A stretch of DNA of 32,000 nt from Erysipelotrichaceae bacterium (GCA_050950925.1 JBMNIN010000003.1:347232-379231), one strand, 5' to 3'; positions 4,857-20,149 are shown, counted from the stretch's first letter. Made by a program: numbers and translations. Notes: a model not told the origin generated them from the sequence alone.

Positions 4857-4885
4857 TTGAGAATGTAAAATAAATATGTTAAGAT
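4857..4885 (+). promoter_or_regulatory. Putative promoter TTGAGA-17-TAAGAT feeding the riboswitch
   Basis: Hexamers read at 4857-4862 and 4880-4885. The riboswitch P1 starts a few nt downstream. Confidence 0.4.
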
Positions 4886-4889
4886 AAAT

Positions 4890-5050
4890 CCATCAGATTT
4901 GGTGTATTTACTTAATAGGGAAATAAGTTTTATTCTTATGCTGTCCCAGCAACCGTGATACAGACGAAATTCAATTATGTCACTGCATTATTGTGGGAAG
5001 ACTGAATAGTAGGATGAAGTTAAGCCGGTAGACCTGCCAAAGACTGATAG
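4890..5050 (+). promoter_or_regulatory. Cobalamin (B12) riboswitch
   Basis: Conserved core elements appear in order: AATAGGGAA, GCTGTCCCAGCAACCGTGA, GTCACTG...GGGAAGAC, and the B12 box AGCCGGTAGACCTGCC. P1 candidate: TCAGATTTGG pairing with CCAAAGACTGA. Confidence 0.85.
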
Positions 5051-5101
5051 TTAGAGGTTTCTTCTGGGAGTGAGCAAACATTGAACTTTTTTGTTTATTT
5101 G

Positions 5102-5129
5102 GCCCATTTTCCTGGAAGATGGGCTTTTT
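5102..5129 (+). terminator. Riboswitch expression-platform terminator
   Basis: GCCCAT (5102-5107) pairs with ATGGGC (5119-5124), followed by TTTTT, just upstream of the SD GGAAGGTG and the ATG at 5145. Confidence 0.7.
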
Positions 5130-5144
5130 AAATGGAAGGTGACT

Positions 5145-5645
5145 ATGAAAGAATCTAAAAGAATGGCCAGAGTTGCATTAATTGGTGCTTTTCTATTCTG
5201 CACGTTTTTTTCATTGTCCAGTATCCTTTATCTTGAAGCTATCACTTTAATGATTATAGCAGTTGCTATGGTCTTTGATAGAAGAGACAGCTTTCAGGCA
5301 TCACTTGTTTTTGGAGTATTGTTAATATTGTACATGGGCTTAACTCCCTGGAGTGTTATGTATTTTATCATTTATCCCTGTTACTCTTTACTGACAAACT
5401 ACTTAAAACCACTTCTGAAGGAAAAAGAATGGTTGCTGATTGTTTATGGTTTTATTTTATCCTGCAGCACCGGTCTGATACTTGATTTACCATTTATTCT
5501 GGTATCAGAACTGGTAACCATTTACTATATCCTCACTGGTCTGAAAACAAGTCTGATTCAGGGAGCATTAACCGCCATGGAAATTGCCTTAATTTATCAG
5601 CCTCTGGAAAATGTATTATTTAAAATTAAGGAGATGCACAAATGA
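5145..5645 (+). CDS. Small polytopic membrane protein, B12-riboswitch controlled (CbrT-like ECF S-component candidate)
   Basis: 166 aa from the ATG at 5145; the track start at 5091 lies inside the terminator. Five or six hydrophobic helices. Size and B12 regulation match the predicted cobalamin S component CbrT, but family membership is not verified. Confidence 0.55.
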   Translation: MKESKRMARVALIGAFLFCTFFSLSSILYLEAITLMIIAVAMVFDRRDSFQASLVFGVLLILYMGLTPWSVMYFIIYPCYSLLTNYLKPLLKEKEWLLIVYGFILSCSTGLILDLPFILVSELVTIYYILTGLKTSLIQGALTAMEIALIYQPLENVLFKIKEMHK

Positions 5646-6067
5646 AAAACAAAAAGAAAATTATTACATTGCTGGCTATTATAGCGATTGTACTGGGAAT
5701 TGTATTTGTGATTAAAAAATTTGCTCAGCCAATTGAAAAACAGCAGGGAAGCAAACAAATCACCATTATTGTTATGAATCTGGAAGAAGAAGAAATCTTC
5801 AATAAAACTTATGGCACAGAAGCCGAATATTTAGATAAGTTACTGGAAGAAAACGCTGACGAATTACAGCTGGACATTTCTGAAATGACCGAAAATGGCA
5901 GAGCGGTCAATGGTTTATGCGGCTTTAAAGTTAACTGGGATACCGGACCATGGCTAATATATGAATCAGAGAATTCTGAGTGCTGTAAAGCAACCGGATT
6001 CTGTCCGTCAGTTGATAAATGTATAATTTTAGATGGAGAGATTTATATCTTCAAGTTCATTAATTGA
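5642..6067 (+). CDS. Membrane-anchored DUF4430-like (transcobalamin beta-domain-like) protein
   Basis: ATGA overlap with the upstream gene, with an AAGGAG SD. N-terminal TM anchor. The C-terminal pattern VNGLCG...GPWLIY...ILDGEIYIFKF resembles the DUF4430 signature (IdGl...gWmY.vNG...l.dGD.i.w.y). Confidence 0.5.
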   Translation: MKNKKKIITLLAIIAIVLGIVFVIKKFAQPIEKQQGSKQITIIVMNLEEEEIFNKTYGTEAEYLDKLLEENADELQLDISEMTENGRAVNGLCGFKVNWDTGPWLIYESENSECCKATGFCPSVDKCIILDGEIYIFKFIN

Positions 6068-9583: not shown

Positions 9584-9614
9584 CTGATTAGAAACTTTTA
9601 AAAGTTTTAATCAG
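9584..9614 (-). terminator. AT-rich hairpin downstream of the three-gene operon
   Basis: CTGATTAGAAACTTTT pairs with AAAAGTTTTAATCAG (about 15 bp, one bulge), 14 nt after the stop at 9628. The U tract is weak. Confidence 0.4.
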
Positions 9615-9627
9615 TTATAATTGCTAA

Positions 9628-11529
9628 CTATTCAATATTGCTTTTATTCTCTCTTTTAATTATTTCAAATGGTATATAGTCATATTCCAGAACATCAGGT
9701 CTTGTTTTAACAAGTTTTTCCCAATTACATAAACAACTATGTGTTTTCTTAAATTCCTTATCAGTTTTTTCACCATATTTAAAACCATGTGTAAGCATAA
9801 AATAGCACCAGCGTCTATGTTCCATTTTTTGCAATTCTTCCCTGTCTTCAAGAGTATATACACTATTTTCAATCAGCCACTCCCAGGTTCCTTTCGCCAT
9901 AGCCTGGGCTATACTTGATTCTTTATCAAACAGACTGCGTCTATTCCATATATCTTCTATAGTATTTACATTATTCTTTATCTGTTTTCTGTCATCACTG
10001 CATTTATTATTATAACCTGTATACTCATCATATATTTTTTGATATTCAAAATTAAAAATCTTAGATATATTTTCAATTTCCTGATTGACAAGAGCAGCAT
10101 ATGAGAAAGCATCTTCATTGGAAAAAACCACTTTAGCAGAATCAAATAACGGTTTCATCTTTTCCTTTTCTTGAGAATACATCAGTATCGGAATGTCACA
10201 ATATAAAAATTCTGACGAACACATACTTTGTTTTAAACACGATACTATATCGACAACTGCTTTATCCAGAGCGATTGCCACAAAAATATAATTGAAAGGC
10301 ATTTCCCGATGACAATTATCAAAAACTTTATTAAACTCTATATTATTTACGTCCATTTTCCAAAAACGTATAACGAGCTTTCCATCCATTGAAAAAAGCG
10401 GTGTTTCCTTTTTATAATCCGGGTCAAAAGGAAATAAAAGACGATAGCAGTCAACATCCATTTCTTCAGATATTTTTTCTTTAGTATATTTAAGAGCTTC
10501 AAGAGCATCAGAAGCAAAATTTTTCATAAAAGAATTAATTTCATTTTCAATATTTTTATCAAATACGTCAATCAGTATTGTTGAATCGCTGGACAATATC
10601 GAAACATTCAATGCATGAATCAGAGCACTCTGACCGACTTCTCCAAAACCACATATAGCAACATGTATATCTTTTTTAATGTTTGAATCATTCTGATATG
10701 AATTATCCTGTTTAATCATTTCCTCTGCCGCCTTAAACAATCCTTCAACAGCTTTTTTCTTAGGATTGATGATTTTAATATTATTTTTTAATCTGGAAAT
10801 ATTAGCACTTTCATTGGAAATATTATCTGAAATCAATCCTTCAACATAAGGGTTTTTGCATAAAACATATATTTTCTGTTGCGAATTAAATTCTTTTTTT
10901 TCGTAATATTCTGAAATTAAATTCAGATTATAATAATTTACAAGATCATCACTATCACAAAGCAGGATATTCTTATATCTGTTAATATTTAAAATATTTA
11001 TCAGGTCTTTCAGTTTCATATTTTCTCTATTTTGAATTAAACTGATACCGTTTCGATAATACCAGAGTAAAAGTTCATCATCAACAACAGTATCTTCTAC
11101 AACTGTCAATTTACAGTCTTTTACAAGGGCATTGATAAATTTTTTATAATCGCTCCCTTTTCCAATAATAAGGAATTTATTACCTTTAAATCTCTTGCCA
11201 AAACCAATAATCCAGTTATATGGTTTTTTTATTAACATCAGCAAAAATGTTGCGGTAAAAAAAGGAGTAATGAGCAATGATAAAGCGTAAAAATGCGTCA
11301 ATATCTGAATACAGACATTTCCTTCATTCTCTTTCATAAAACCATAGGCAGCATCCAGACTTATTTCAGGATCAAGTTTTATCGCATTTATTATATTCTG
11401 TATGTTCAAATAGATTCTAAAATGGATGTCTTCAACATTGCTGTAATAAATCCACCCCTCCAATGCTAAAACAACAAATATACTAACAGTTACTACTAAA
11501 ATAATAAATTTAAAACCAAATCTTTTCAT
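9628..11529 (-). CDS. Membrane protein: 2 TM helices + two Rossmann/KTN-like modules + C-terminal RyR-like domain
   Basis: TM1 at aa 7-27 and TM2 at about aa 72-100. FLIIGKGSDY (aa 119-128) and VAICGFGEVGQSALIHAL (GxGxxG, aa 294-299). The C-terminus EHRRWCYFMLTHGFKYG...THSCLCNWEKL...EYDYIP matches the RyR-repeat pattern (HERW...GW.YG...HP.LVPW.EL). Confidence 0.6.
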   Translation of the reverse strand: MKRFGFKFIILVVTVSIFVVLALEGWIYYSNVEDIHFRIYLNIQNIINAIKLDPEISLDAAYGFMKENEGNVCIQILTHFYALSLLITPFFTATFLLMLIKKPYNWIIGFGKRFKGNKFLIIGKGSDYKKFINALVKDCKLTVVEDTVVDDELLLWYYRNGISLIQNRENMKLKDLINILNINRYKNILLCDSDDLVNYYNLNLISEYYEKKEFNSQQKIYVLCKNPYVEGLISDNISNESANISRLKNNIKIINPKKKAVEGLFKAAEEMIKQDNSYQNDSNIKKDIHVAICGFGEVGQSALIHALNVSILSSDSTILIDVFDKNIENEINSFMKNFASDALEALKYTKEKISEEMDVDCYRLLFPFDPDYKKETPLFSMDGKLVIRFWKMDVNNIEFNKVFDNCHREMPFNYIFVAIALDKAVVDIVSCLKQSMCSSEFLYCDIPILMYSQEKEKMKPLFDSAKVVFSNEDAFSYAALVNQEIENISKIFNFEYQKIYDEYTGYNNKCSDDRKQIKNNVNTIEDIWNRRSLFDKESSIAQAMAKGTWEWLIENSVYTLEDREELQKMEHRRWCYFMLTHGFKYGEKTDKEFKKTHSCLCNWEKLVKTRPDVLEYDYIPFEIIKRENKSNIE

Positions 11530-11576
11530 CGTTCTTCATTCCTTTTCTGCAAAACATTTAATATAAATCTATTATA

Positions 11577-12473
11577 TTATATAAGCTTGCGAGTACCTTT
11601 TTCTATATAAGCTAAAATGTCAGCACTTCTAATTTTTTGTGAATCTGTCTGTGACAACTCAGATAATGATTCTAAAGACACCCATTTAAATTCAAAAATA
11701 TCTGATTCAGCAGTTACATCATTATTTAACAGTTCACCATTATATAGCATAATAAACTCCTGACGAACCTCACCATCTGAGTAGACAAATCTGATGTCCG
11801 GATTAGTATAAATTCCTATAACATCTCTGACTCTTATATCAAGACCGCTTTTTTCTTTCACTCCCCTTATTGCACATTCGATAATACTTTCACCACATTT
11901 CATTGTGCAACCTGGCAGCATCCATTGGTTTAAGTCTTTGGGTTTTAACATCAGCAATTCATGCTTTGAATTAATAACAGCAATTTCAGTGGCAGGTTTT
12001 ATCGAGTTAGCTTCGGGAGCTTCATTTTGAAAATAGTATTCTTTTTTTAAAACTCTCATTTTTTCTTCCAGCCAGACCAGCTGTTCATCGCTGATTACCA
12101 CTGTTTTTTTATCGTTTATTGAAGGAACTTTTATAAATAAAAGCGTCGTTCCAGCTGCAACTCTCTGGGCATATGAAGTATCAGGTTCTATGGCATAAAA
12201 ATCACCCTTTTTAAACTCATAAATCTCACCAGTTTCAACATTCATGTATTCAGTCCAGCCGCTGATAATATACTGATATTCTGTAGCAACATCATGAACG
12301 TGCGCTGTTTCTGACTGACCGTCTGAATAACTTGAAATTCCAATCTCCAGTCTGTCATCGCGAATAAAAGTAATCTGTTGCGGTCTGGACAGATTTCCGA
12401 CAAAATACTGCCTGGTTGTGCTTTTTAGCACATCCGTAATATCTGAATTTTCGATTCTGATAATTTTTCCCAT
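11577..12473 (-). CDS. Cupin-Nudix fusion protein with a degenerate Nudix box
   Basis: aa 52-72 (GQSETAHVHDVATEYQYIISG) fit cupin motif 1, G(X)5HXH(X)4E(X)6G, exactly. aa 189-211 (CTMKCGESIIECAIRGVKEKSGL) align to the Nudix box GX5EX7REUXEEXGU with G1->C, E16->G and E20->K. An AAGGAG SD lies 17 nt after the upstream stop. Confidence 0.65.
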   Translation of the reverse strand: MGKIIRIENSDITDVLKSTTRQYFVGNLSRPQQITFIRDDRLEIGISSYSDGQSETAHVHDVATEYQYIISGWTEYMNVETGEIYEFKKGDFYAIEPDTSYAQRVAAGTTLLFIKVPSINDKKTVVISDEQLVWLEEKMRVLKKEYYFQNEAPEANSIKPATEIAVINSKHELLMLKPKDLNQWMLPGCTMKCGESIIECAIRGVKEKSGLDIRVRDVIGIYTNPDIRFVYSDGEVRQEFIMLYNGELLNNDVTAESDIFEFKWVSLESLSELSQTDSQKIRSADILAYIEKGTRKLI

Positions 12474-12490
12474 TACTCATTTCTCCTTTT

Positions 12491-15478
12491 CTAAACAAAG
12501 TATAGTTTTAAATAATTGTTTGTACCATTACAAAGTTCTTCTATTGATTCAACACAAGAGCCAAAATGCATTATTTTTGCCCGACTGATTGCTTCACTGC
12601 ATGCCACTGAAATCGGTGCAGTTCCTATTTTGCTTTCACAGGCCCCCAGTAAAGACTGACTCATTATAAGTCCCCAATCTTGTTTAATCTCTTCGTATAT
12701 TGCTCTAGCCCTTGAGGCAAAATCCATGGCCCCCATTACATCATTCAGTTTAAAATGAACATTCGCTATACCTAAATTAGCGTGTGCTATCCATCCCGGA
12801 ATCCCCTTTACAGTAGCATATCTTAGTGCATCAGAATAATATTTCAAAGCTTCGTCTTCTTTAGCATGCATACAGGTATAAATTGTTGCCAGAGTGCACG
12901 TCAGATATGCATCATATCGGGTCTTAATAGGAGCACGATTTTTAATCTCCTCAGGAATCAGTGCTAATGCCATATCGTAATTATTGTTTCTATAATGATA
13001 TTCACATAATTTTCTGATATTTCTTTTTTTGTAATCCATCAGATTATATTGAGATGCATATTCTTCAGAAATCATTAACCACTGTAAAGAATTGTCCCAT
13101 TCGCCAGAAAGAGCATATTTGCCACCAATAAAAAACAGTAATTCATAATAAGGTTTAGGATAGTTTTTACCTATCTTTGCATATAACGAAAGGGCTTCTT
13201 CAATAACCTTATTTACAGGGCGATAAAAAGCGGAGTGATGCAGACATCTTACTTTGAGCATTAATAGAAACTCATTATTATTGATGGTTTCAAAATCATA
13301 CTGTGACAGATAATTATCAATTATATCCACTGCTTCCCTATATCTGCCGGACCGATGCACAATATCAACATATATAGAAAGGGCTTCCTTATCAAAATCA
13401 GTAATCTCATATTTTTCTTTAGCCATCTCAAATATCCATAATAGAAAATCAGTATTTCCTTCTCTTTGAAGTTTGTGTAGAAAATCATTACGTTTTTCAG
13501 ATTCCCAAAATGCCTGAAGCAATTCGGAATTATTCCAATTTATCGGAAATTGTCGCCACACTTTCCAGTACGGGTCTAATTTATCTTTCTTAGAAAGTAG
13601 AAATTCTTCAAGTTCAATATACTTTCCTGACGCAATATAATAGCCGCCAATATGATTTTTAATATAATTTTGAAGTAACATATTATCAACTGCTTCATCA
13701 TTTATCCGAAAGCAATTTTCTATTAATTTTCTGCAGTGACGAGCCAGCTTTAATGCTCCTTTCTGATAATCCACATAAAATTCTCCGCTCTGTTTACTGT
13801 TAGTAAACCAGTCTTTAACAGACTTATGTGAAAAACTCAGCAAAAAAAGCCCTGATTCTTCATAACGATTTACCCAGGAACCAAGCTTGTCCAGATAGAC
13901 AATAAAAGTATACTGATTGTATCCGCAAGCTGTATGAACCAATTCTTCAGGTATAGTATCAGAAATAGATAATAACTCTAAAATCCCTCTCAACTCAACA
14001 AACGACTCTTGAACAGGGAACTTTCTTTCCATTGACTTGCGATAAAAACCTGCTAAACCTTTTGGATAAGAATCAATTTCACTCAATTTGATACTTCCAT
14101 TTTTTATATCTGCAACCAGTAATTCGGCATATAGAAAAATCCCATCACTTAATTCAGATATTTTTGTTATTATTTCGATGAAATTTGATGTCTTATCGTA
14201 TTCATCTTTAAGCGCCTTTGTCAGATAAGCCAGAATGTCATTATAGTTTTCTGGCATATCTTCTATGATATCTATAACATCATAGGTCTGGAAATACTTG
14301 CTGACGTTTTTTTCCTGACGACTTGTAAAAATAAATTTAATCCAGCGAGGTAATCTATCAACACACCTTGCAAAAACACTGGCTAAAGGATTATCTCCAT
14401 CACTTTCCGCTTCATCCAGTCCGTCCACAATTATAATACCTGTTTCGCGATTACCGTCTACAAGGTTTGATAAAGGATACGTCAGAAGAAAATCAAATAG
14501 TGTTTCAGAATTCATTTCATCGAGACTATCTTCCAACTCTAACTGATGTAATAATAATCGTCTGTAATCCTGGATTTTAGTCGCCAGTCTGAAAGCTATA
14601 GTCTTTATCAGACTATTTGGGTTAGTAGTATTTTCCCGATTCCATTCACATAAAAAACAACCATAAACATAATGATTATAATGCGAGAAATTAACACTGA
14701 ATGCACTTTTGCCACTACCTGGACGTCCATACAGCATCAGTGCCTTTGTTGACTTATTTTCATACCAGTTACTGATATAATCTTCCAGCCATCCCCTCTT
14801 CTGAAAATCCTTTGAAAGTAGTTCTCTCTTTTTATTTGAGTCAGGATAAGGAGCAAGTTTTGTTTCCAGAATCTTAATATCACCACTCAATTCATGTGAT
14901 TTTTTTGATTCAATCACCTGACATAATTCAGCAAACTTTTCACTGTACCATTTTTCAAATTCGGTTTCAGAATTTTTTTTGATTTCATACCAGTCGCTCA
15001 TATCAAGCCATTGAATATTCGAAATTGTAATTGGGGGTTTAATTCTATTTTCTGATTCCAAAAGGACTGTTTTGATATTTGCTCCTGCTACACTGACCGC
15101 AATTTTCAATTCATCTAAACATACACCAGGATTTCGTGTTGAATGTTCGGACAAAAATGCAATAATACCTGACACACTCAGAATGCCGTTGAGTATTTCT
15201 TCCCGCCAGTGATTTCCTGCTTTTATTTCACTGGTATCAATCCATATATAATGACCTCTTTTTTCCAGGTCACGCTTTATACGTTCAACAAGCACACTGT
15301 TTCTATCGTGTCCATAACTAAAAAAAAGTTTGAGGCCTCCATCATCATTACAGTTCTGCTTTTTAAAATCCAGAATTTGCTGTTCTGTAAAGGTTCTATC
15401 ACAATCCTCACAAACAAATCTCTTTCCTTTTTTGCTATAATAAACATTTTCAGAGCCACAATGTAGACACTTTTCCAT
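12491..15478 (-). CDS. Zn-ribbon + TIR + STAND (NACHT-like) P-loop NTPase + TPR-like repeat protein (bacterial NLR-like)
   Basis: CxxC...CxxC at C4/C7/C23/C26. TIR_2-type signature LFFSYGHD (aa 51-58) and CLDEL with candidate catalytic E123. Walker A GRPGSGKS (aa 251-258) and Walker B IIIVDGLDEAE (aa 348-358). The helical repeat-rich C-terminus covers about aa 640-995. A GGAGGTG-like SD precedes the start. Confidence 0.8.
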   Translation of the reverse strand: MEKCLHCGSENVYYSKKGKRFVCEDCDRTFTEQQILDFKKQNCNDDGGLKLFFSYGHDRNSVLVERIKRDLEKRGHYIWIDTSEIKAGNHWREEILNGILSVSGIIAFLSEHSTRNPGVCLDELKIAVSVAGANIKTVLLESENRIKPPITISNIQWLDMSDWYEIKKNSETEFEKWYSEKFAELCQVIESKKSHELSGDIKILETKLAPYPDSNKKRELLSKDFQKRGWLEDYISNWYENKSTKALMLYGRPGSGKSAFSVNFSHYNHYVYGCFLCEWNRENTTNPNSLIKTIAFRLATKIQDYRRLLLHQLELEDSLDEMNSETLFDFLLTYPLSNLVDGNRETGIIIVDGLDEAESDGDNPLASVFARCVDRLPRWIKFIFTSRQEKNVSKYFQTYDVIDIIEDMPENYNDILAYLTKALKDEYDKTSNFIEIITKISELSDGIFLYAELLVADIKNGSIKLSEIDSYPKGLAGFYRKSMERKFPVQESFVELRGILELLSISDTIPEELVHTACGYNQYTFIVYLDKLGSWVNRYEESGLFLLSFSHKSVKDWFTNSKQSGEFYVDYQKGALKLARHCRKLIENCFRINDEAVDNMLLQNYIKNHIGGYYIASGKYIELEEFLLSKKDKLDPYWKVWRQFPINWNNSELLQAFWESEKRNDFLHKLQREGNTDFLLWIFEMAKEKYEITDFDKEALSIYVDIVHRSGRYREAVDIIDNYLSQYDFETINNNEFLLMLKVRCLHHSAFYRPVNKVIEEALSLYAKIGKNYPKPYYELLFFIGGKYALSGEWDNSLQWLMISEEYASQYNLMDYKKRNIRKLCEYHYRNNNYDMALALIPEEIKNRAPIKTRYDAYLTCTLATIYTCMHAKEDEALKYYSDALRYATVKGIPGWIAHANLGIANVHFKLNDVMGAMDFASRARAIYEEIKQDWGLIMSQSLLGACESKIGTAPISVACSEAISRAKIMHFGSCVESIEELCNGTNNYLKLYFV

Positions 15479-15653
15479 ACTCCCACCTCAACTGTCATTG
15501 ATTTATATTATTTTATTATTAATTTGCCCGGCATTGTATATTCTTGCTTTTTATTACTACCTAATATTAAGAATTAAACTGATTTTTTAATACACTGACA
15601 GGTAGAATATACATCAAAATGGCCCAAAACAAAGAGTTCTGCAACGGAATTAA

Positions 15654-15682
15654 TTATAAAATACAAAAACATATACGTCAAG
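15654..15682 (-). promoter_or_regulatory. Near-consensus promoter TTGACG-17-TATAAT for the TIR-STAND operon
   Basis: On the minus strand the -35 is plus 15677-15682, the spacer is 17 nt, and the -10 is plus 15654-15659. This implies a 5' leader of about 170 nt before the ATG at 15478. Confidence 0.55.
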
Positions 15683-16201
15683 AAAACCGTTTTTTTAGCG
15701 CGCACTCCTTTTTTTGTTTTTATAATGCATGTATCTCATAAATTATTTTTATTCAGTTATCCCAAGTTATCCTTAACATTATTTTCAACTGTTCTGATTA
15801 TTCTTTGAAACTCTCATCATTTTTCCCACTTGAATTACCTAAATCTCAACCTTCTATATCAGCTTAGGAAATTACAGAGTAATCCACATTACAACCCCTA
15901 GTGATTACCATATCAGCTTCAAAAATCTCAACTGTCTTTTTTGAATACTGTGTTCTTTCATATCTATTCCATACAATTCTTTTATCAAACATACAGCGTT
16001 CTGATTGGTTTTAGACTGCACCCTTGTCTGCTAATAAAGTTCATACATACCTGAACCTTTTTTTCAAGTGCTTATGCAAGCTGACCGCATAGGAATTGTA
16101 CATATAAATAATGGTCATTTTTTCTGACCATACTAATCAATGACTTTCTATTAAAATATTTATCATTTCTATTTTACATTTTACAATCATAATCATATTT
16201 A

Positions 16202-16222
16202 AGGCCACAAGATGTGGCCTTA
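16202..16222 (-). terminator. GC-rich hairpin ending the rimO-transketolase operon
   Basis: AAGGCCACA-aga-TGTGGCCTT, 49 nt downstream of the stop at 16271. The U tract is poor on either strand. Confidence 0.55.
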
Positions 16223-16270
16223 AATACTGATATTCAATTTGATTTATTATAAATTAAAAATTTCAAATTT

Positions 16271-19623: not shown

Positions 19624-19700
19624 CGGGATGTTGCACAGCTTGGTAGTGCACCTGGTTTGGGACCAGGGGGTCGCAGGTTCGAATCCTGTCATCCCGACCA
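19624..19700 (+). tRNA. tRNA-Pro (TGG)
   Basis: Acceptor CGGGATG/CATCCCG, anticodon loop TTTGGGA, T-loop GGTTCGAATCC, CCA encoded. Confidence 0.9.
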
Positions 19701-19703
19701 TGT

Positions 19704-19780
19704 GGCGGGATAGCTTAGTTGGTTAGAGCGCTCGGTTCATACCCGGGAGGTCGTGAGTTCGAATCTCACTCCCGCTACCA
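19704..19780 (+). tRNA. tRNA-Met elongator (CAT)
   Basis: Acceptor GGCGGGA/TCCCGCT (G1-U72 wobble, as in Bacillus elongator Met), anticodon loop TTCATAC, CCA encoded. Confidence 0.8.
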
Positions 19781-19806
19781 TTAATATACTGGACCGATAT
19801 ATTACT

Positions 19807-19883
19807 GGACCCTTAGCGCAGCTGGTCAGAGCAGTCGGCTCATAACCGATCGGTCGCAGGTTCGAGTCCTGCAGGGTCCACCA
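19807..19883 (+). tRNA. tRNA with CAT anticodon, most likely tRNA-Ile2 (lysidine)
   Basis: GGACCCTTAGC...GGCTCATAACCG...GGGTCCACCA resembles the Bacillus tRNA-Ile(CAU) as I remember it. The cluster also holds separate elongator and initiator Met tRNAs. Confidence 0.7.
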
Positions 19884-19894
19884 AAACATTTTAC

Positions 19895-19985
19895 GGAGGA
19901 ATACCCAAGCGGTTGAAGGGTCCGGTCTTGAAAACCGGTAGGTCGGTAATGCGGCGCCTGGGTTCGAATCCCAGTTCCTCCGCCA
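19895..19985 (+). tRNA. tRNA-Ser (TGA)
   Basis: 91 nt with a long variable arm, anticodon loop CTTGAAA, acceptor GGAGGAA/TTCCTCC, CCA encoded. Confidence 0.9.
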
Positions 19986-19995
19986 TTATTAATAT

Positions 19996-20072
<77 letters not shown>

Positions 20073-20073
20073 T

Positions 20074-20149
20074 GGTCCGATAGCTCAGTTGGTAGAGCAG
20101 TGGACTGAAAATCCACGTGTCGCTGGTTCAATTCCGGCTCGGACCACCA
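20074..20149 (+). tRNA. tRNA-Phe (GAA)
   Basis: Acceptor GGTCCGA/TCGGACC, anticodon loop CTGAAAA, starts 1 nt after the preceding tRNA, CCA encoded. Confidence 0.9.

Follow-up and report, generated by a model that had tools for sequence, protein, structure and literature searches.

A 32,000-nucleotide (nt) stretch of DNA from an Erysipelotrichaceae bacterium (GCA_050950925.1 JBMNIN010000003.1:347232-379231), referred to as the window and numbered from its first letter, carries three genes on the minus strand between positions 9584 and 15682. They encode a TIR-STAND receptor-like protein (gene 1), a cupin-Nudix fusion (gene 2) and a membrane protein with a RyR/R12 domain (gene 3). The block is best read as a version of an NLR-like, defence-type TIR signalling module that has spread horizontally, and it hints at a branch of TIR-based immunity that has not been described. 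Across genomes, what is conserved is a core of genes 1 and 2; beside it lies a slot with many interchangeable occupants, gene 3 among them. The genuinely new element is a putative class of host effectors with RyR/R12 domains, and the cupin-Nudix protein is an extra partner.

12491-15478, minus strand: gene 1, open reading frame (ORF) of 995 residues
11577-12473, minus strand: gene 2, ORF of 298 residues
9628-11529, minus strand: gene 3, ORF of 633 residues (NCBI ACOX1F_05450)

Gene 1 is composed of the following parts.

15401-15469, minus strand: zinc ribbon CxxC...CxxC (residues 4-26, motifs at residues 4 and 23), with a weak Zn-ribbon match in Pfam
14978-15331, minus strand: TIR domain (residues 50-167), with FFSYGHD at residue 52 and the catalytic-glutamate motif GVCLDEL (E123)
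14318-14776, minus strand: STAND NTPase core (residues 235-387), with Walker A GRPGSGKS (K257) and Walker B IIIVDGLDEA
12494-13801, minus strand: C-terminal TPR-like sensor region (residues ~560-995), seen by phmmer with the neighbours of distant gene 2 homologues

In Pfam searches, TIR_2 (residues 52-167, E = 7e-16) and the NACHT-like STAND family NPHP3_N (residues 235-387, E = 1e-18, 68 bits) match gene 1 above their cut-offs. The Pfam NACHT model itself reaches 14 bits against a cut-off of 26.7, accompanied by weak TANC1-like lid matches; the orthologue at locus L020 matches it with E = 9e-6. A preliminary description of the region had named a zinc ribbon and the motifs FFSYGHD (52), CLDEL (E123), GRPGSGKS (K257) and IIIVDGLDEAE (348). 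All of them are found, and the four motifs are kept in orthologues. Gene 1 is 52-62 % identical to orthologues from 10 loci, and the GVCLDEL, Walker A and Walker B motifs are invariant in 11 orthologues (35-62 % identity). Therefore, gene 1 is an intact TIR-STAND sensor protein. The TPR-like region is clear in the orthologues but weak in the window copy (15.8 bits). Gene 1 departs from the consensus at 22 of 209 orthologue-invariant positions, 14 of which lie within the C-terminal TPR region.

The pairing of genes 1 and 2 is strict. We examine the contexts of gene 2 at three individual homologues and 80 genome loci. Close homologues of gene 2 that have sequence upstream of them are found at 19 loci; at every one a gene 1 orthologue lies directly upstream, at a distance of ~13-17 nt, and two of these 19 loci are degenerate. 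The core loci come from Bacillota, Spirochaetota, Kiritimatiellia and Bacteroidota. They are often carried on integrative and conjugative element (ICE) or transposon backbones, or lie beside Cap2-like E1-E2, DolB-like, LmuB-like and SspH-like genes, and the TIR-STAND-TPR architecture is patchy across at least eight phyla. The three genes had been proposed as one module; only the gene 1-gene 2 pair is fixed, and the gene 3 slot is variable. Decayed cores are also seen. At L019 (6996-9991), the gene 1 orthologue is split into ORFs of 657 and 338 residues. In Prevotella (L022, 9438-10789), the core is reduced to 180 residues from the C-terminal end of gene 1 and a cupin-Nudix protein shortened to 262 residues.

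The RyR/R12 domain of gene 3 and the variable slot

Three regions of gene 3 carry recognisable features.

11227-11517, minus strand: N-terminal membrane region, with transmembrane segments TM1 (residues ~5-30) and TM2 (residues ~72-101) and a conserved LNIQN..A.K.DP helix
10120-10674, minus strand: second Rossmann module (residues ~286-470), with GFGEVG at 294-299 and IDVFD (D321/D324)
9643-9957, minus strand: C-terminal RyR/R12 domain (residues ~525-629), with EHRRW (H571, W574), H597-x-C599 and Y616-D617

The RyR-like domain proposed for gene 3 is established by the family rather than by the window protein alone, which scores 15.7 bits against the Pfam RyR cut-off of 27.4. Pfam RyR matches 14 of 47 family members, with a best E-value of 3e-6. 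A profile of the family C-terminal domain matches the R12 domain of RyR1 in the PDB with E = 3e-15, with HxxW and H-P-C aligned, and a RyR-like protein of B. thetaiotaomicron (3nrt) with E = 4.5e-7; a profile of full-length gene 3 finds no match among PDB sequences. PDB 35tm, which may be the RyDEP structure, ranks low among the matches. The invariants of the domain across the 47 diverse members are EHRRW, H597-x-C and YD617.

[quoted passage not shown] These residues are conserved across PF02026 (PMC13232231). Judged by alignment, gene 3 retains the equivalent candidate ligand residues as H571, W574, H597 and D617. In the 47 members, H571 is present in 46, W574 in 43 (F in the rest), H597 in 34 (N in 10) and D617 in 46. 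The spacing from the first histidine is +3, +26 and +46 in gene 3 and +3, +25 and +42 in RyDEP, and the equivalence of D617 is assigned by spacing, not by superposition. With its conserved H/D dyad, gene 3 may also cleave its own ligand, by analogy with some CARF effectors.

Hydropathy confirms the two TM segments, which coincide with helices in the AlphaFold2 (AF2) model. The model contains two Rossmann-like α/β modules and a helical C-terminal domain, with a mediocre mean confidence score (pLDDT) of 63. Both Rossmann modules had been described as of the NAD-binding type. The second is canonical, its GxGxxG and IDxxD motifs being invariant across the 47 members; the first is degenerate. In Foldseek, gene 3 matches the tandem RCK/KTN gating rings of CASTOR, Slo1, TrkA, GsuK and MthK with a probability of ~1.0 but with TM-scores of only 0.31-0.42 against CASTOR, Slo1, TrkA and GsuK, and it also matches two-Rossmann dehydrogenases. 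Pfam TrkA_N is hit in two of the 47 members, below cut-off. The KTN likeness proposed earlier may be real, at modest TM-scores. There is now good reason for the earlier idea that an NAD-derived ligand is read by a membrane effector. Unlike the preliminary description, we place ligand sensing, as the most plausible choice, in the RyR/R12 domain combined with the second, canonical Rossmann module.

Two further assignments of the membrane region were considered. A K+ channel of the MthK/GsuK type is rejected, as no TVGYG-like filter lies between the TM segments in the family alignment. Identity with the 'ion channel' effector of type X Thoeris is weakly disfavoured, as no Ion_trans signature is found in the 47 members.

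Other occupants of the slot show the same domain in other settings. Stand-alone RyR proteins of 76-104 residues lie beside the TIR-STAND gene at L010/11, L013, L014 and L017, with Pfam RyR E-values down to 1.5e-31 and a match to PDB 3nrt at 5e-31. RyR domains are also fused to a Rossmann module and a Card1/CARF-PDDEXK-type nuclease (L009), to a PD-T4-6/MkoA-like kinase with a Rossmann module and the same type of nuclease (L013, L014), to a C39 peptidase (L022, a zf-HC2/C39-peptidase/RyR protein beside the core remnant) and to multi-TM proteins (L017, L020). The largest of these have a stand-alone RyR gene and the TIR-STAND gene shortly downstream.

L013, 2148-6332: kinase/Rossmann/RyR/nuclease protein of 1394 residues
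L014, 2217-6611: kinase/Rossmann/RyR/nuclease protein of 1464 residues

Positions 265-610 of the gene 3 profile, which comprise the second Rossmann module and the RyR domain, align to the nuclease and kinase fusions. Proteins with RyR domains occur at ~10 of 14 distinct TIR-type loci and at 0 of ~60-67 non-TIR loci found with the same query (Fisher p ~1e-8 on a tally of 9/13 versus 0/60). In these loci, the RyR domain behaves as a swappable sensor.

The slot may instead hold TIR or HD proteins. Upstream or downstream of the core, as many as five TIR genes may stand in an array, some of them with ThsB_TIR, LRR or Sel1 domains; an HD protein is also seen there, and at L020 a small HD gene follows the cupin-Nudix gene. 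At L005/L007 (7922-13725), five TIR genes (157, 263, 500 with LRR_5, 569 and 211 residues) follow the TIR-STAND/cupin-Nudix pair and are interrupted by one 177-residue ORF without a Pfam match, a layout that resembles multi-ThsB Thoeris islands. The sister locus L006 carries three of the same TIR genes on a backbone with a TraG-like coupling protein, a Tn916-type integrase and an excisionase.

Relatives of gene 3 occur beside four TIR architectures, including that of the window. At L004, a gene 3 homologue adjoins a 531-residue TIR_2 protein. At ~11 loci, a 552-residue TIR_2+DUF4357 protein lies immediately upstream of the homologue (L094-L099; for example L094, 6323-7981). At L020, a 597-residue protein belonging to the gene 3 family over its full length (3e-20) lies directly upstream of a divergent gene 1-gene 2 pair with 35 % and 47 % identity to the window genes. 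Zinc-ribbon proteins are seen nearby: one of 446 residues precedes the TIR_2+DUF4357 protein at L094-L099, and small ones (186-259 residues) precede the gene 3 homologues at L002 and L092.

In an exhaustive profile search, the gene 3 family comprises 733 representative clusters, 112 of them at E <= 1e-30, mostly full length at 620-720 residues. A word-indexed search gives 18 clusters, to which a repeat with a diverse alignment adds almost none. Gene 3 has no match on plasmids and one partial match, to the RyR domain, on viral contigs. A metagenome scan with a narrow gene 3 alignment reached only the close human-gut clade, and the ~65 metagenome loci with a gene 3 homologue and no TIR neighbour probably represent one abundant gut lineage. 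In the human-gut metagenome contigs L108-L170, dozens of independent assemblies break ~5.9-6.2 kb upstream of the homologue, which suggests a repeated or variable element there. In Lachnospira (L001, 2-3272), the homologue lies ~7 kb from ToxN and Abi_2 genes and follows an unannotated 668-residue protein without a Pfam or PADLOC match.

The cupin-Nudix partner

Gene 2 joins two domains, of which one is conserved in the window and the other is not.

12099-12356, minus strand: cupin barrel (residues ~40-125), with the metal motif HVHDVATEYQYIISG at residue 58
11841-11912, minus strand: degenerate Nudix box GCTMKCGESIIECAIRGVKEKSGL (residues 188-211); the family consensus is GGTLEFGESMTECALREVKEESGL

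The cupin of the preliminary description is borne out, with its predicted metal site. The motif HxH(x4)E(x6)G is present and matches the cupin pattern G(x)5HxH(x)3-4E(x)6G, and the AF2 model of gene 2 (pLDDT 74) has an all-beta barrel at residues 42-124. Pfam Cupin_2 falls just under its cut-off (24.3 versus 27.2 bits), and many homologues carry PF07883. The Nudix fold is supported, with Pfam NUDIX above its cut-off (38.7 versus 21.1 bits), Foldseek probabilities of 1.0 to many Nudix structures and agreeing profile matches in the PDB. The best matches are MutT-like proteins, NudI, NUDT1, Ap4A/Ap6A hydrolases and RppH, and AtNUDT7 and ADPRase are also present. Neither profile nor fold comparisons show a preference for the ADP-ribose (ADPR) class, ADPRases ranking no better than the others. 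The 'ADPR-type' label given earlier to this domain is rejected, as the matches are generic and no class is favoured.

The window sequence does not match the catalytic Nudix box GX5EX7REUXEEXGU. REVKEE is replaced by RGVKEK, and two of the three REUXEE glutamates are lost. The substitutions G189C, E192K, E204G and E208K sit at positions that are 99-100 % conserved in 118 aligned relatives (100 % for E204 and E208), whose tallied box variants all retain RE.xEE. The loss extends beyond the box. Among 134 columns conserved in at least 95 % of the 118 relatives, the window protein deviates at 26, R178P among the changes. The cupin half accounts for 3 of these deviations, out of 58 columns, and the Nudix half for 23, out of 76 (Fisher p = 3e-4). 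Other family members have a median of one deviation and a maximum of nine. Since the box glutamates and many other conserved residues are lost, the Nudix domain of the window is very probably catalytically dead, with the ORF and the cupin half maintained. Outright pseudogenisation is unlikely, because the ORF is full length without a frameshift and the cupin half is conserved. The role of a signal-degrading enzyme, suggested earlier for gene 2, thus does not hold in the window. In the wider family, the Nudix enzyme is predicted to be catalytically competent from its canonical box. The family comprises at least 359 clusters at 90 % identity, and nearly all of the proteins among the 120 matches listed have 298 residues.

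Outside the TIR-type loci, distant gene 2 homologues follow STAND-TPR proteins with other N-termini. The partner is an HTH-nSTAND1-TPR protein in Bryobacterales, a STAND-TPR protein without an N-terminal effector domain in a Calditrichota metagenome-assembled genome (L035) and a TPR-only protein elsewhere. In phmmer comparisons, homology between these distant partners and gene 1 is confined to the C-terminal TPR region, where TPR_MalT and TPR_12 match. Therefore, the cupin-Nudix protein is tied most tightly to the TPR sensor, not to the TIR domain. In Acidobacteriota and Verrucomicrobiota (L042-L051), cupin and Nudix are encoded by two adjacent genes (~142-146 and ~158-174 residues; for example L046, 9989-10910). 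The gene upstream encodes an HTH-nSTAND1-TPR regulator-type STAND protein at L044, and a 977-residue neighbour at L046 shares the C-terminal homology with gene 1. Here the fusion is naturally split and has a partner that resembles a transcription factor.

Other homologues have no STAND neighbour. In Actinomyces, Schaalia and relatives (L023, L026-L030, L037, L045), the cupin-Nudix gene forms a triad with genes for a CorA-like/holin-like protein and an HD protein, with no accompanying TIR or STAND gene.

L027, 3104-5885: example of the Actinomyces-type triad, with a membrane protein (437-467 residues across the type), the cupin-Nudix protein and a small HD protein (~160 residues)

Some Bacillaceae and other cupin-Nudix loci have unrelated neighbours and no STAND gene, and the plasmid matches to gene 2 are Nudix-only actinomycete ones. 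Because the cupin-Nudix protein accompanies both non-TIR STAND-TPR proteins and non-STAND neighbours, its role is not limited to TIR products.

These observations bear on a reading in which the STAND-TPR protein has the cupin-Nudix protein as its actual output or co-sensor. A ligand or the TPR region would be bound by the cupin, an essential nucleotide would be hydrolysed by the Nudix domain, and the operon of the window would be a degenerating copy that has lost its Nudix activity, with gene 3 compensating or incidental. The shared C-terminal TPR region, rather than TIR or NTPase, agrees with such a role, as do the split genes of Acidobacteria and the partners at L035, L044 and L046, beside which the cupin-Nudix protein is the sole candidate enzymatic output. 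So does the pattern of decay in the window, concentrated in the Nudix half of gene 2 and, for 14 of the 22 deviations, in the TPR region of gene 1. However, gene 2 is full length with a conserved cupin half, no Nudix substrate class is favoured by profile or fold searches, homologues without a STAND neighbour exist, and the enrichment of RyR proteins is left unexplained. We regard this reading as quite unlikely.

Genomic setting of the operon

The three ORFs are separated by gaps of 17 nt (genes 1 and 2) and 47 nt (genes 2 and 3), and each is preceded by a Shine-Dalgarno sequence: GAGGTG for gene 1, AAGGAG for gene 2 and AAAGGA for gene 3. Two further elements bound the block.

15653-15681, minus strand: sigma-70-type promoter TTGACG-17-TATAAT, ~175 nt upstream of the gene 1 start, matching 11 of 12 consensus positions
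9584-9614, minus strand: AT-rich imperfect hairpin 3' of gene 3, detected by folding; a possible weak terminator

The promoter is the top-scoring site of the region (11/12), in which promoter-like sites overall are in slight excess (47 versus 35.5±6.7). In view of the 47-nt gap, the Shine-Dalgarno sequence of gene 3 and the single promoter, the genes are probably co-transcribed. The operon layout and promoter therefore agree with the preliminary description. The hairpin is present as described, but it is weak: it has no T-tract, was not reported by a terminator scan of the region, and its folding is statistically unremarkable (z = -1.6), being equalled in 16 of 200 shuffles.

The flanking genes, too, are those described earlier. 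One flank consists of a GH36 melibiase gene and a gene for a GNAT-HAD protein, the other of transketolase, rimO, an S4/pseudouridine synthase and RsmF, all of them housekeeping. The block had been likened to an accessory insertion; contigs with an identical flanking transketolase gene all carry the operon, leaving no operon-free copy for comparison. No integrase or transposase is found within the 32-kb window. The GC fraction is 0.346 for gene 1 and 0.358 for gene 2, neither distinct from the flanks, and gene 3 alone is lower (0.293).

Such surroundings speak for a non-immune housekeeping or stress module, in which NAD+/ADPR metabolism would be linked to ion homeostasis via an RCK-type membrane protein under the control of adenine nucleotides. 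RCK/KTN domains normally regulate ion transport, metabolic genes flank the abundant gut clade of gene 3, and cupin-Nudix homologues occur in non-defence contexts. Nevertheless, this explanation is very improbable in view of the patchy TIR-STAND-TPR architecture over at least eight phyla, the related loci on ICE/transposon backbones and in defence-gene neighbourhoods, the ThsB-like TIR arrays that accompany the core, and the fusion of RyR to nuclease, kinase and peptidase effector modules.

Upstream of the operon, ~590 nt separate its promoter from the end of the transketolase gene (15682-16270), and this spacer contains no ORF and no Rfam match. In it lie a strong terminator (16227-16195), another hairpin resembling a terminator (16131-16111) and, repeated at ~15919 and ~15861, the short motif 'AAGCTGATAT'. 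Sister loci have a small RyR gene at the place of this spacer, which may be the scar of an insertion or of a lost gene. Relics of RyR or TIR genes are found neither in the 790-nt upstream spacer nor elsewhere in the window.

Further away, a cobalamin riboswitch (Rfam RF00174, 90 bits; 4884-5055, plus strand) lies upstream of two small ORFs (5091-5645 and 5642-6067), neither with a match in Pfam. A local GC peak is explained by six clustered tRNA genes (19624-20149, plus strand: Pro-TGG, Met, Met, Ser-TGA, Met, Phe-GAA).

Proposed mechanism and related systems

From the observed domain identities, motif integrity and decay, and neighbourhood statistics, we infer every biochemical step of the following scheme. 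The TPR region of gene 1 would sense an invader cue, upon which the STAND NTPase would oligomerise. The clustered TIR domains (E123) would then turn NAD+ into a signal of the cyclic-ADPR type. The RyR pocket of gene 3 (H571, W574, H597, D617) would bind this signal, possibly with the adjacent Rossmann module, and ligand binding would alter an RCK-like cytoplasmic assembly, so that the 2-TM region conducts ions or breaches the membrane and the infected cell is arrested. In the wider family, the Nudix enzyme would most likely trim ADPR-type nucleotides, which may set a signal threshold, end the signal or make the loss of NAD+ irreversible, and the cupin-Nudix protein may be a partner of the TPR sensor. 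In the window, gene 2 may keep only a ligand-binding or structural role, possibly with the TPR region. In sister loci, the stand-alone RyR proteins and the Nudix enzyme may tune or end the signal. We consider the chances about evenly divided that the operon works by Thoeris-like signalling of this kind, with the TIR domain inside an NLR-like receptor, a membrane effector with an RyR sensor and a Nudix partner that is dead in this copy.

Several points weigh against this scheme. Avs-type TIR-STAND proteins are generally thought to act alone, by depleting NAD+. Gene 3 is absent from most gene 1-gene 2 loci, and most of its sampled homologues, namely the ~65 metagenome loci and Lachnospira L001-L003, have no TIR neighbour; its genomic context, moreover, is sampled from the close clade only of the 733-cluster family. 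The control for RyR enrichment is imperfect, because the non-TIR loci come mostly from other phyla and are not phylogenetically matched. The AF2 model of gene 3 is of mediocre confidence and its TM-scores are modest, and neither alignment nor Pfam finds a K+-channel selectivity filter or Ion_trans in the 47 family members. The lower GC of gene 3 may fit a separately acquired occupant of the variable slot that arrived later and independently. Finally, the decay of the Nudix domain together with the 22 deviations in gene 1 could mean that the whole operon is decaying.

Some of these points would be accommodated if gene 1 were a self-sufficient, Avs-like depleter of NAD+, with gene 2 as an auxiliary ADPR/NAD(H) hydrolase (dead here) by which the depletion would become irreversible and gene 3 as unrelated cargo that often stands alone and differs from genes 1 and 2 in GC. 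An ADPR-destroying Nudix enzyme would be rational in that setting, since phage NARP1 rebuilds NAD+ from ADPR. TIR-STAND proteins have been treated in just this way: a systematic Thoeris survey of 2025 deliberately excludes Avs-type TIR-STAND fusions because they are regarded as single-gene, NAD+-depleting effectors. On the other side stand the strong enrichment of RyR proteins at the cores, fusions that look like signal-activated immune effectors, the recurrence of gene 3 relatives beside four TIR architectures, the indications that gene 3 is co-transcribed, and the association of cupin-Nudix proteins with TIR-free STAND-TPR proteins. We therefore judge stand-alone NAD+ depletion unlikely.

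The operon can be compared with several named systems. The preliminary description knew of no named system with this trio, and this is upheld, within incomplete coverage: no match is found in PADLOC or NCBIfam, and the literature searched, with surveys of STAND and conflict systems, gives no earlier description of these combinations.

With Thoeris (types I-XI), the operon shares a TIR domain with a catalytic glutamate (TIR_2 7e-16; E123) and a separate neighbour that joins a candidate ADPR-signal-binding domain to a putative killing module, here membrane-spanning. Membrane effectors are described for Thoeris types II, V, VI, VII and X, and related loci carry tandem ThsB-like TIR genes. Unlike in Thoeris, the TIR domain is embedded in a STAND-TPR receptor of ~1000 residues, the candidate sensor is RyR/R12 plus Rossmann rather than SLOG, Macro, SLATT, DUF2270, DUF6650 or TPR, and the cupin-Nudix gene is an invariant extra component. 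The available text and tables of the Thoeris survey contain no mention of RyR, Nudix, cupin or TrkA, and PADLOC finds neither ThsA nor another Thoeris effector in the operon.

Avs/AVAST and bacterial NACHT proteins have the same tripartite order, in which an N-terminal effector-type domain (here TIR) comes first, a STAND NTPase carrying Walker A and B follows, and a repeat sensor lies at the C-terminus. Local similarity of gene 1 to Avs1b is weak and limited to the NTPase region (PADLOC, E = 1.6e-7), and gene 1 is below the cut-off of every Avs model (NCBIfam Avs1b, 20.8 bits versus 1500). Unlike Avs, gene 1 is obligatorily paired with a cupin-Nudix gene (19/19 close loci), and RyR proteins are frequent neighbours, so that signalling is favoured over stand-alone NAD+ depletion. 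A STAND survey of 2026 makes no mention of a Nudix partner.

The RyR/R12 domain of gene 3 belongs to the same R12 fold family (PF02026) as phage RyDEP, with the H/W/H/D residues conserved in the family, and small stand-alone RyR proteins like RyDEP stand beside host TIR-STAND genes. However, RyDEP is a phage-encoded counter-defence protein, a glycosidase or sponge for 2'/3'cADPR, whereas the gene 3 domain is host-encoded and fused to membrane and Rossmann modules, the RyR domains of related loci are fused to nucleases, kinases and peptidases, and the gene 3 family is essentially absent from viral contigs. A host-encoded, fused RyR domain inside a TIR operon therefore implies a role as sensor or host-side regulator. 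The use of one sensor domain with many effector modules recalls the effectors of type III CRISPR and CBASS (Card1/Can2, ring nucleases), as do the small stand-alone sensor copies that could degrade or buffer a signal and the Card1/CARF-PDDEXK-type nuclease of the large RyR proteins at L009, L013 and L014. RyR plus Rossmann here takes the place of CARF/SAVED, and TIR that of the cyclase.

Eukaryotic parallels are analogies only and imply neither orthology nor a calcium or channel function. In the plant TNL-EDS1/NUDT7 pathway, an NLR with an N-terminal TIR is likewise paired with a Nudix protein, and AtNUDT7 is among the Foldseek matches of gene 2. In vertebrate TRPM2, an inactive NUDT9-H domain serves as ADPR sensor, to which a catalytically dead Nudix domain beside a channel-like protein (genes 2 and 3) may be compared. 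The R12 domain on a membrane protein may be likened to the ryanodine receptor. A closer correspondence, in which the operon is a TNL-like bacterial pathway whose NLR-embedded TIR messenger is read by RyR/R12 on a membrane channel-like protein and tuned by RyR proteins and the cupin-Nudix partner, is possible but doubtful.

If Thoeris-like signalling through gene 3 is correct, RyR/R12 plus Rossmann would join CARF, SAVED, SLOG, Macro and STING among the prokaryotic receptors of nucleotide signals, and TIR domains in STAND receptors would be able to generate signals, as those of plant TNLs do, beyond NAD+ depletion. The Thoeris survey filtered out exactly this TIR-STAND class. As an obligatory partner that goes with the TPR sensor region across STAND proteins of differing outputs, the cupin-Nudix protein is a puzzling part of a widespread STAND family, and the dead Nudix domain of the window is a natural separation-of-function allele. 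Direct action of cADPR on the R12 domain of the ryanodine receptor has long been debated. The operon would offer a simple bacterial setting for testing this action. If the closer, TNL-like correspondence held as well, R12 would be a true receptor module for immune signals, and bacteria would supply a precedent for the action of cADPR on ryanodine receptors and for the arrangement of TRPM2, in which an inactive Nudix domain works beside a channel that responds to ADPR.

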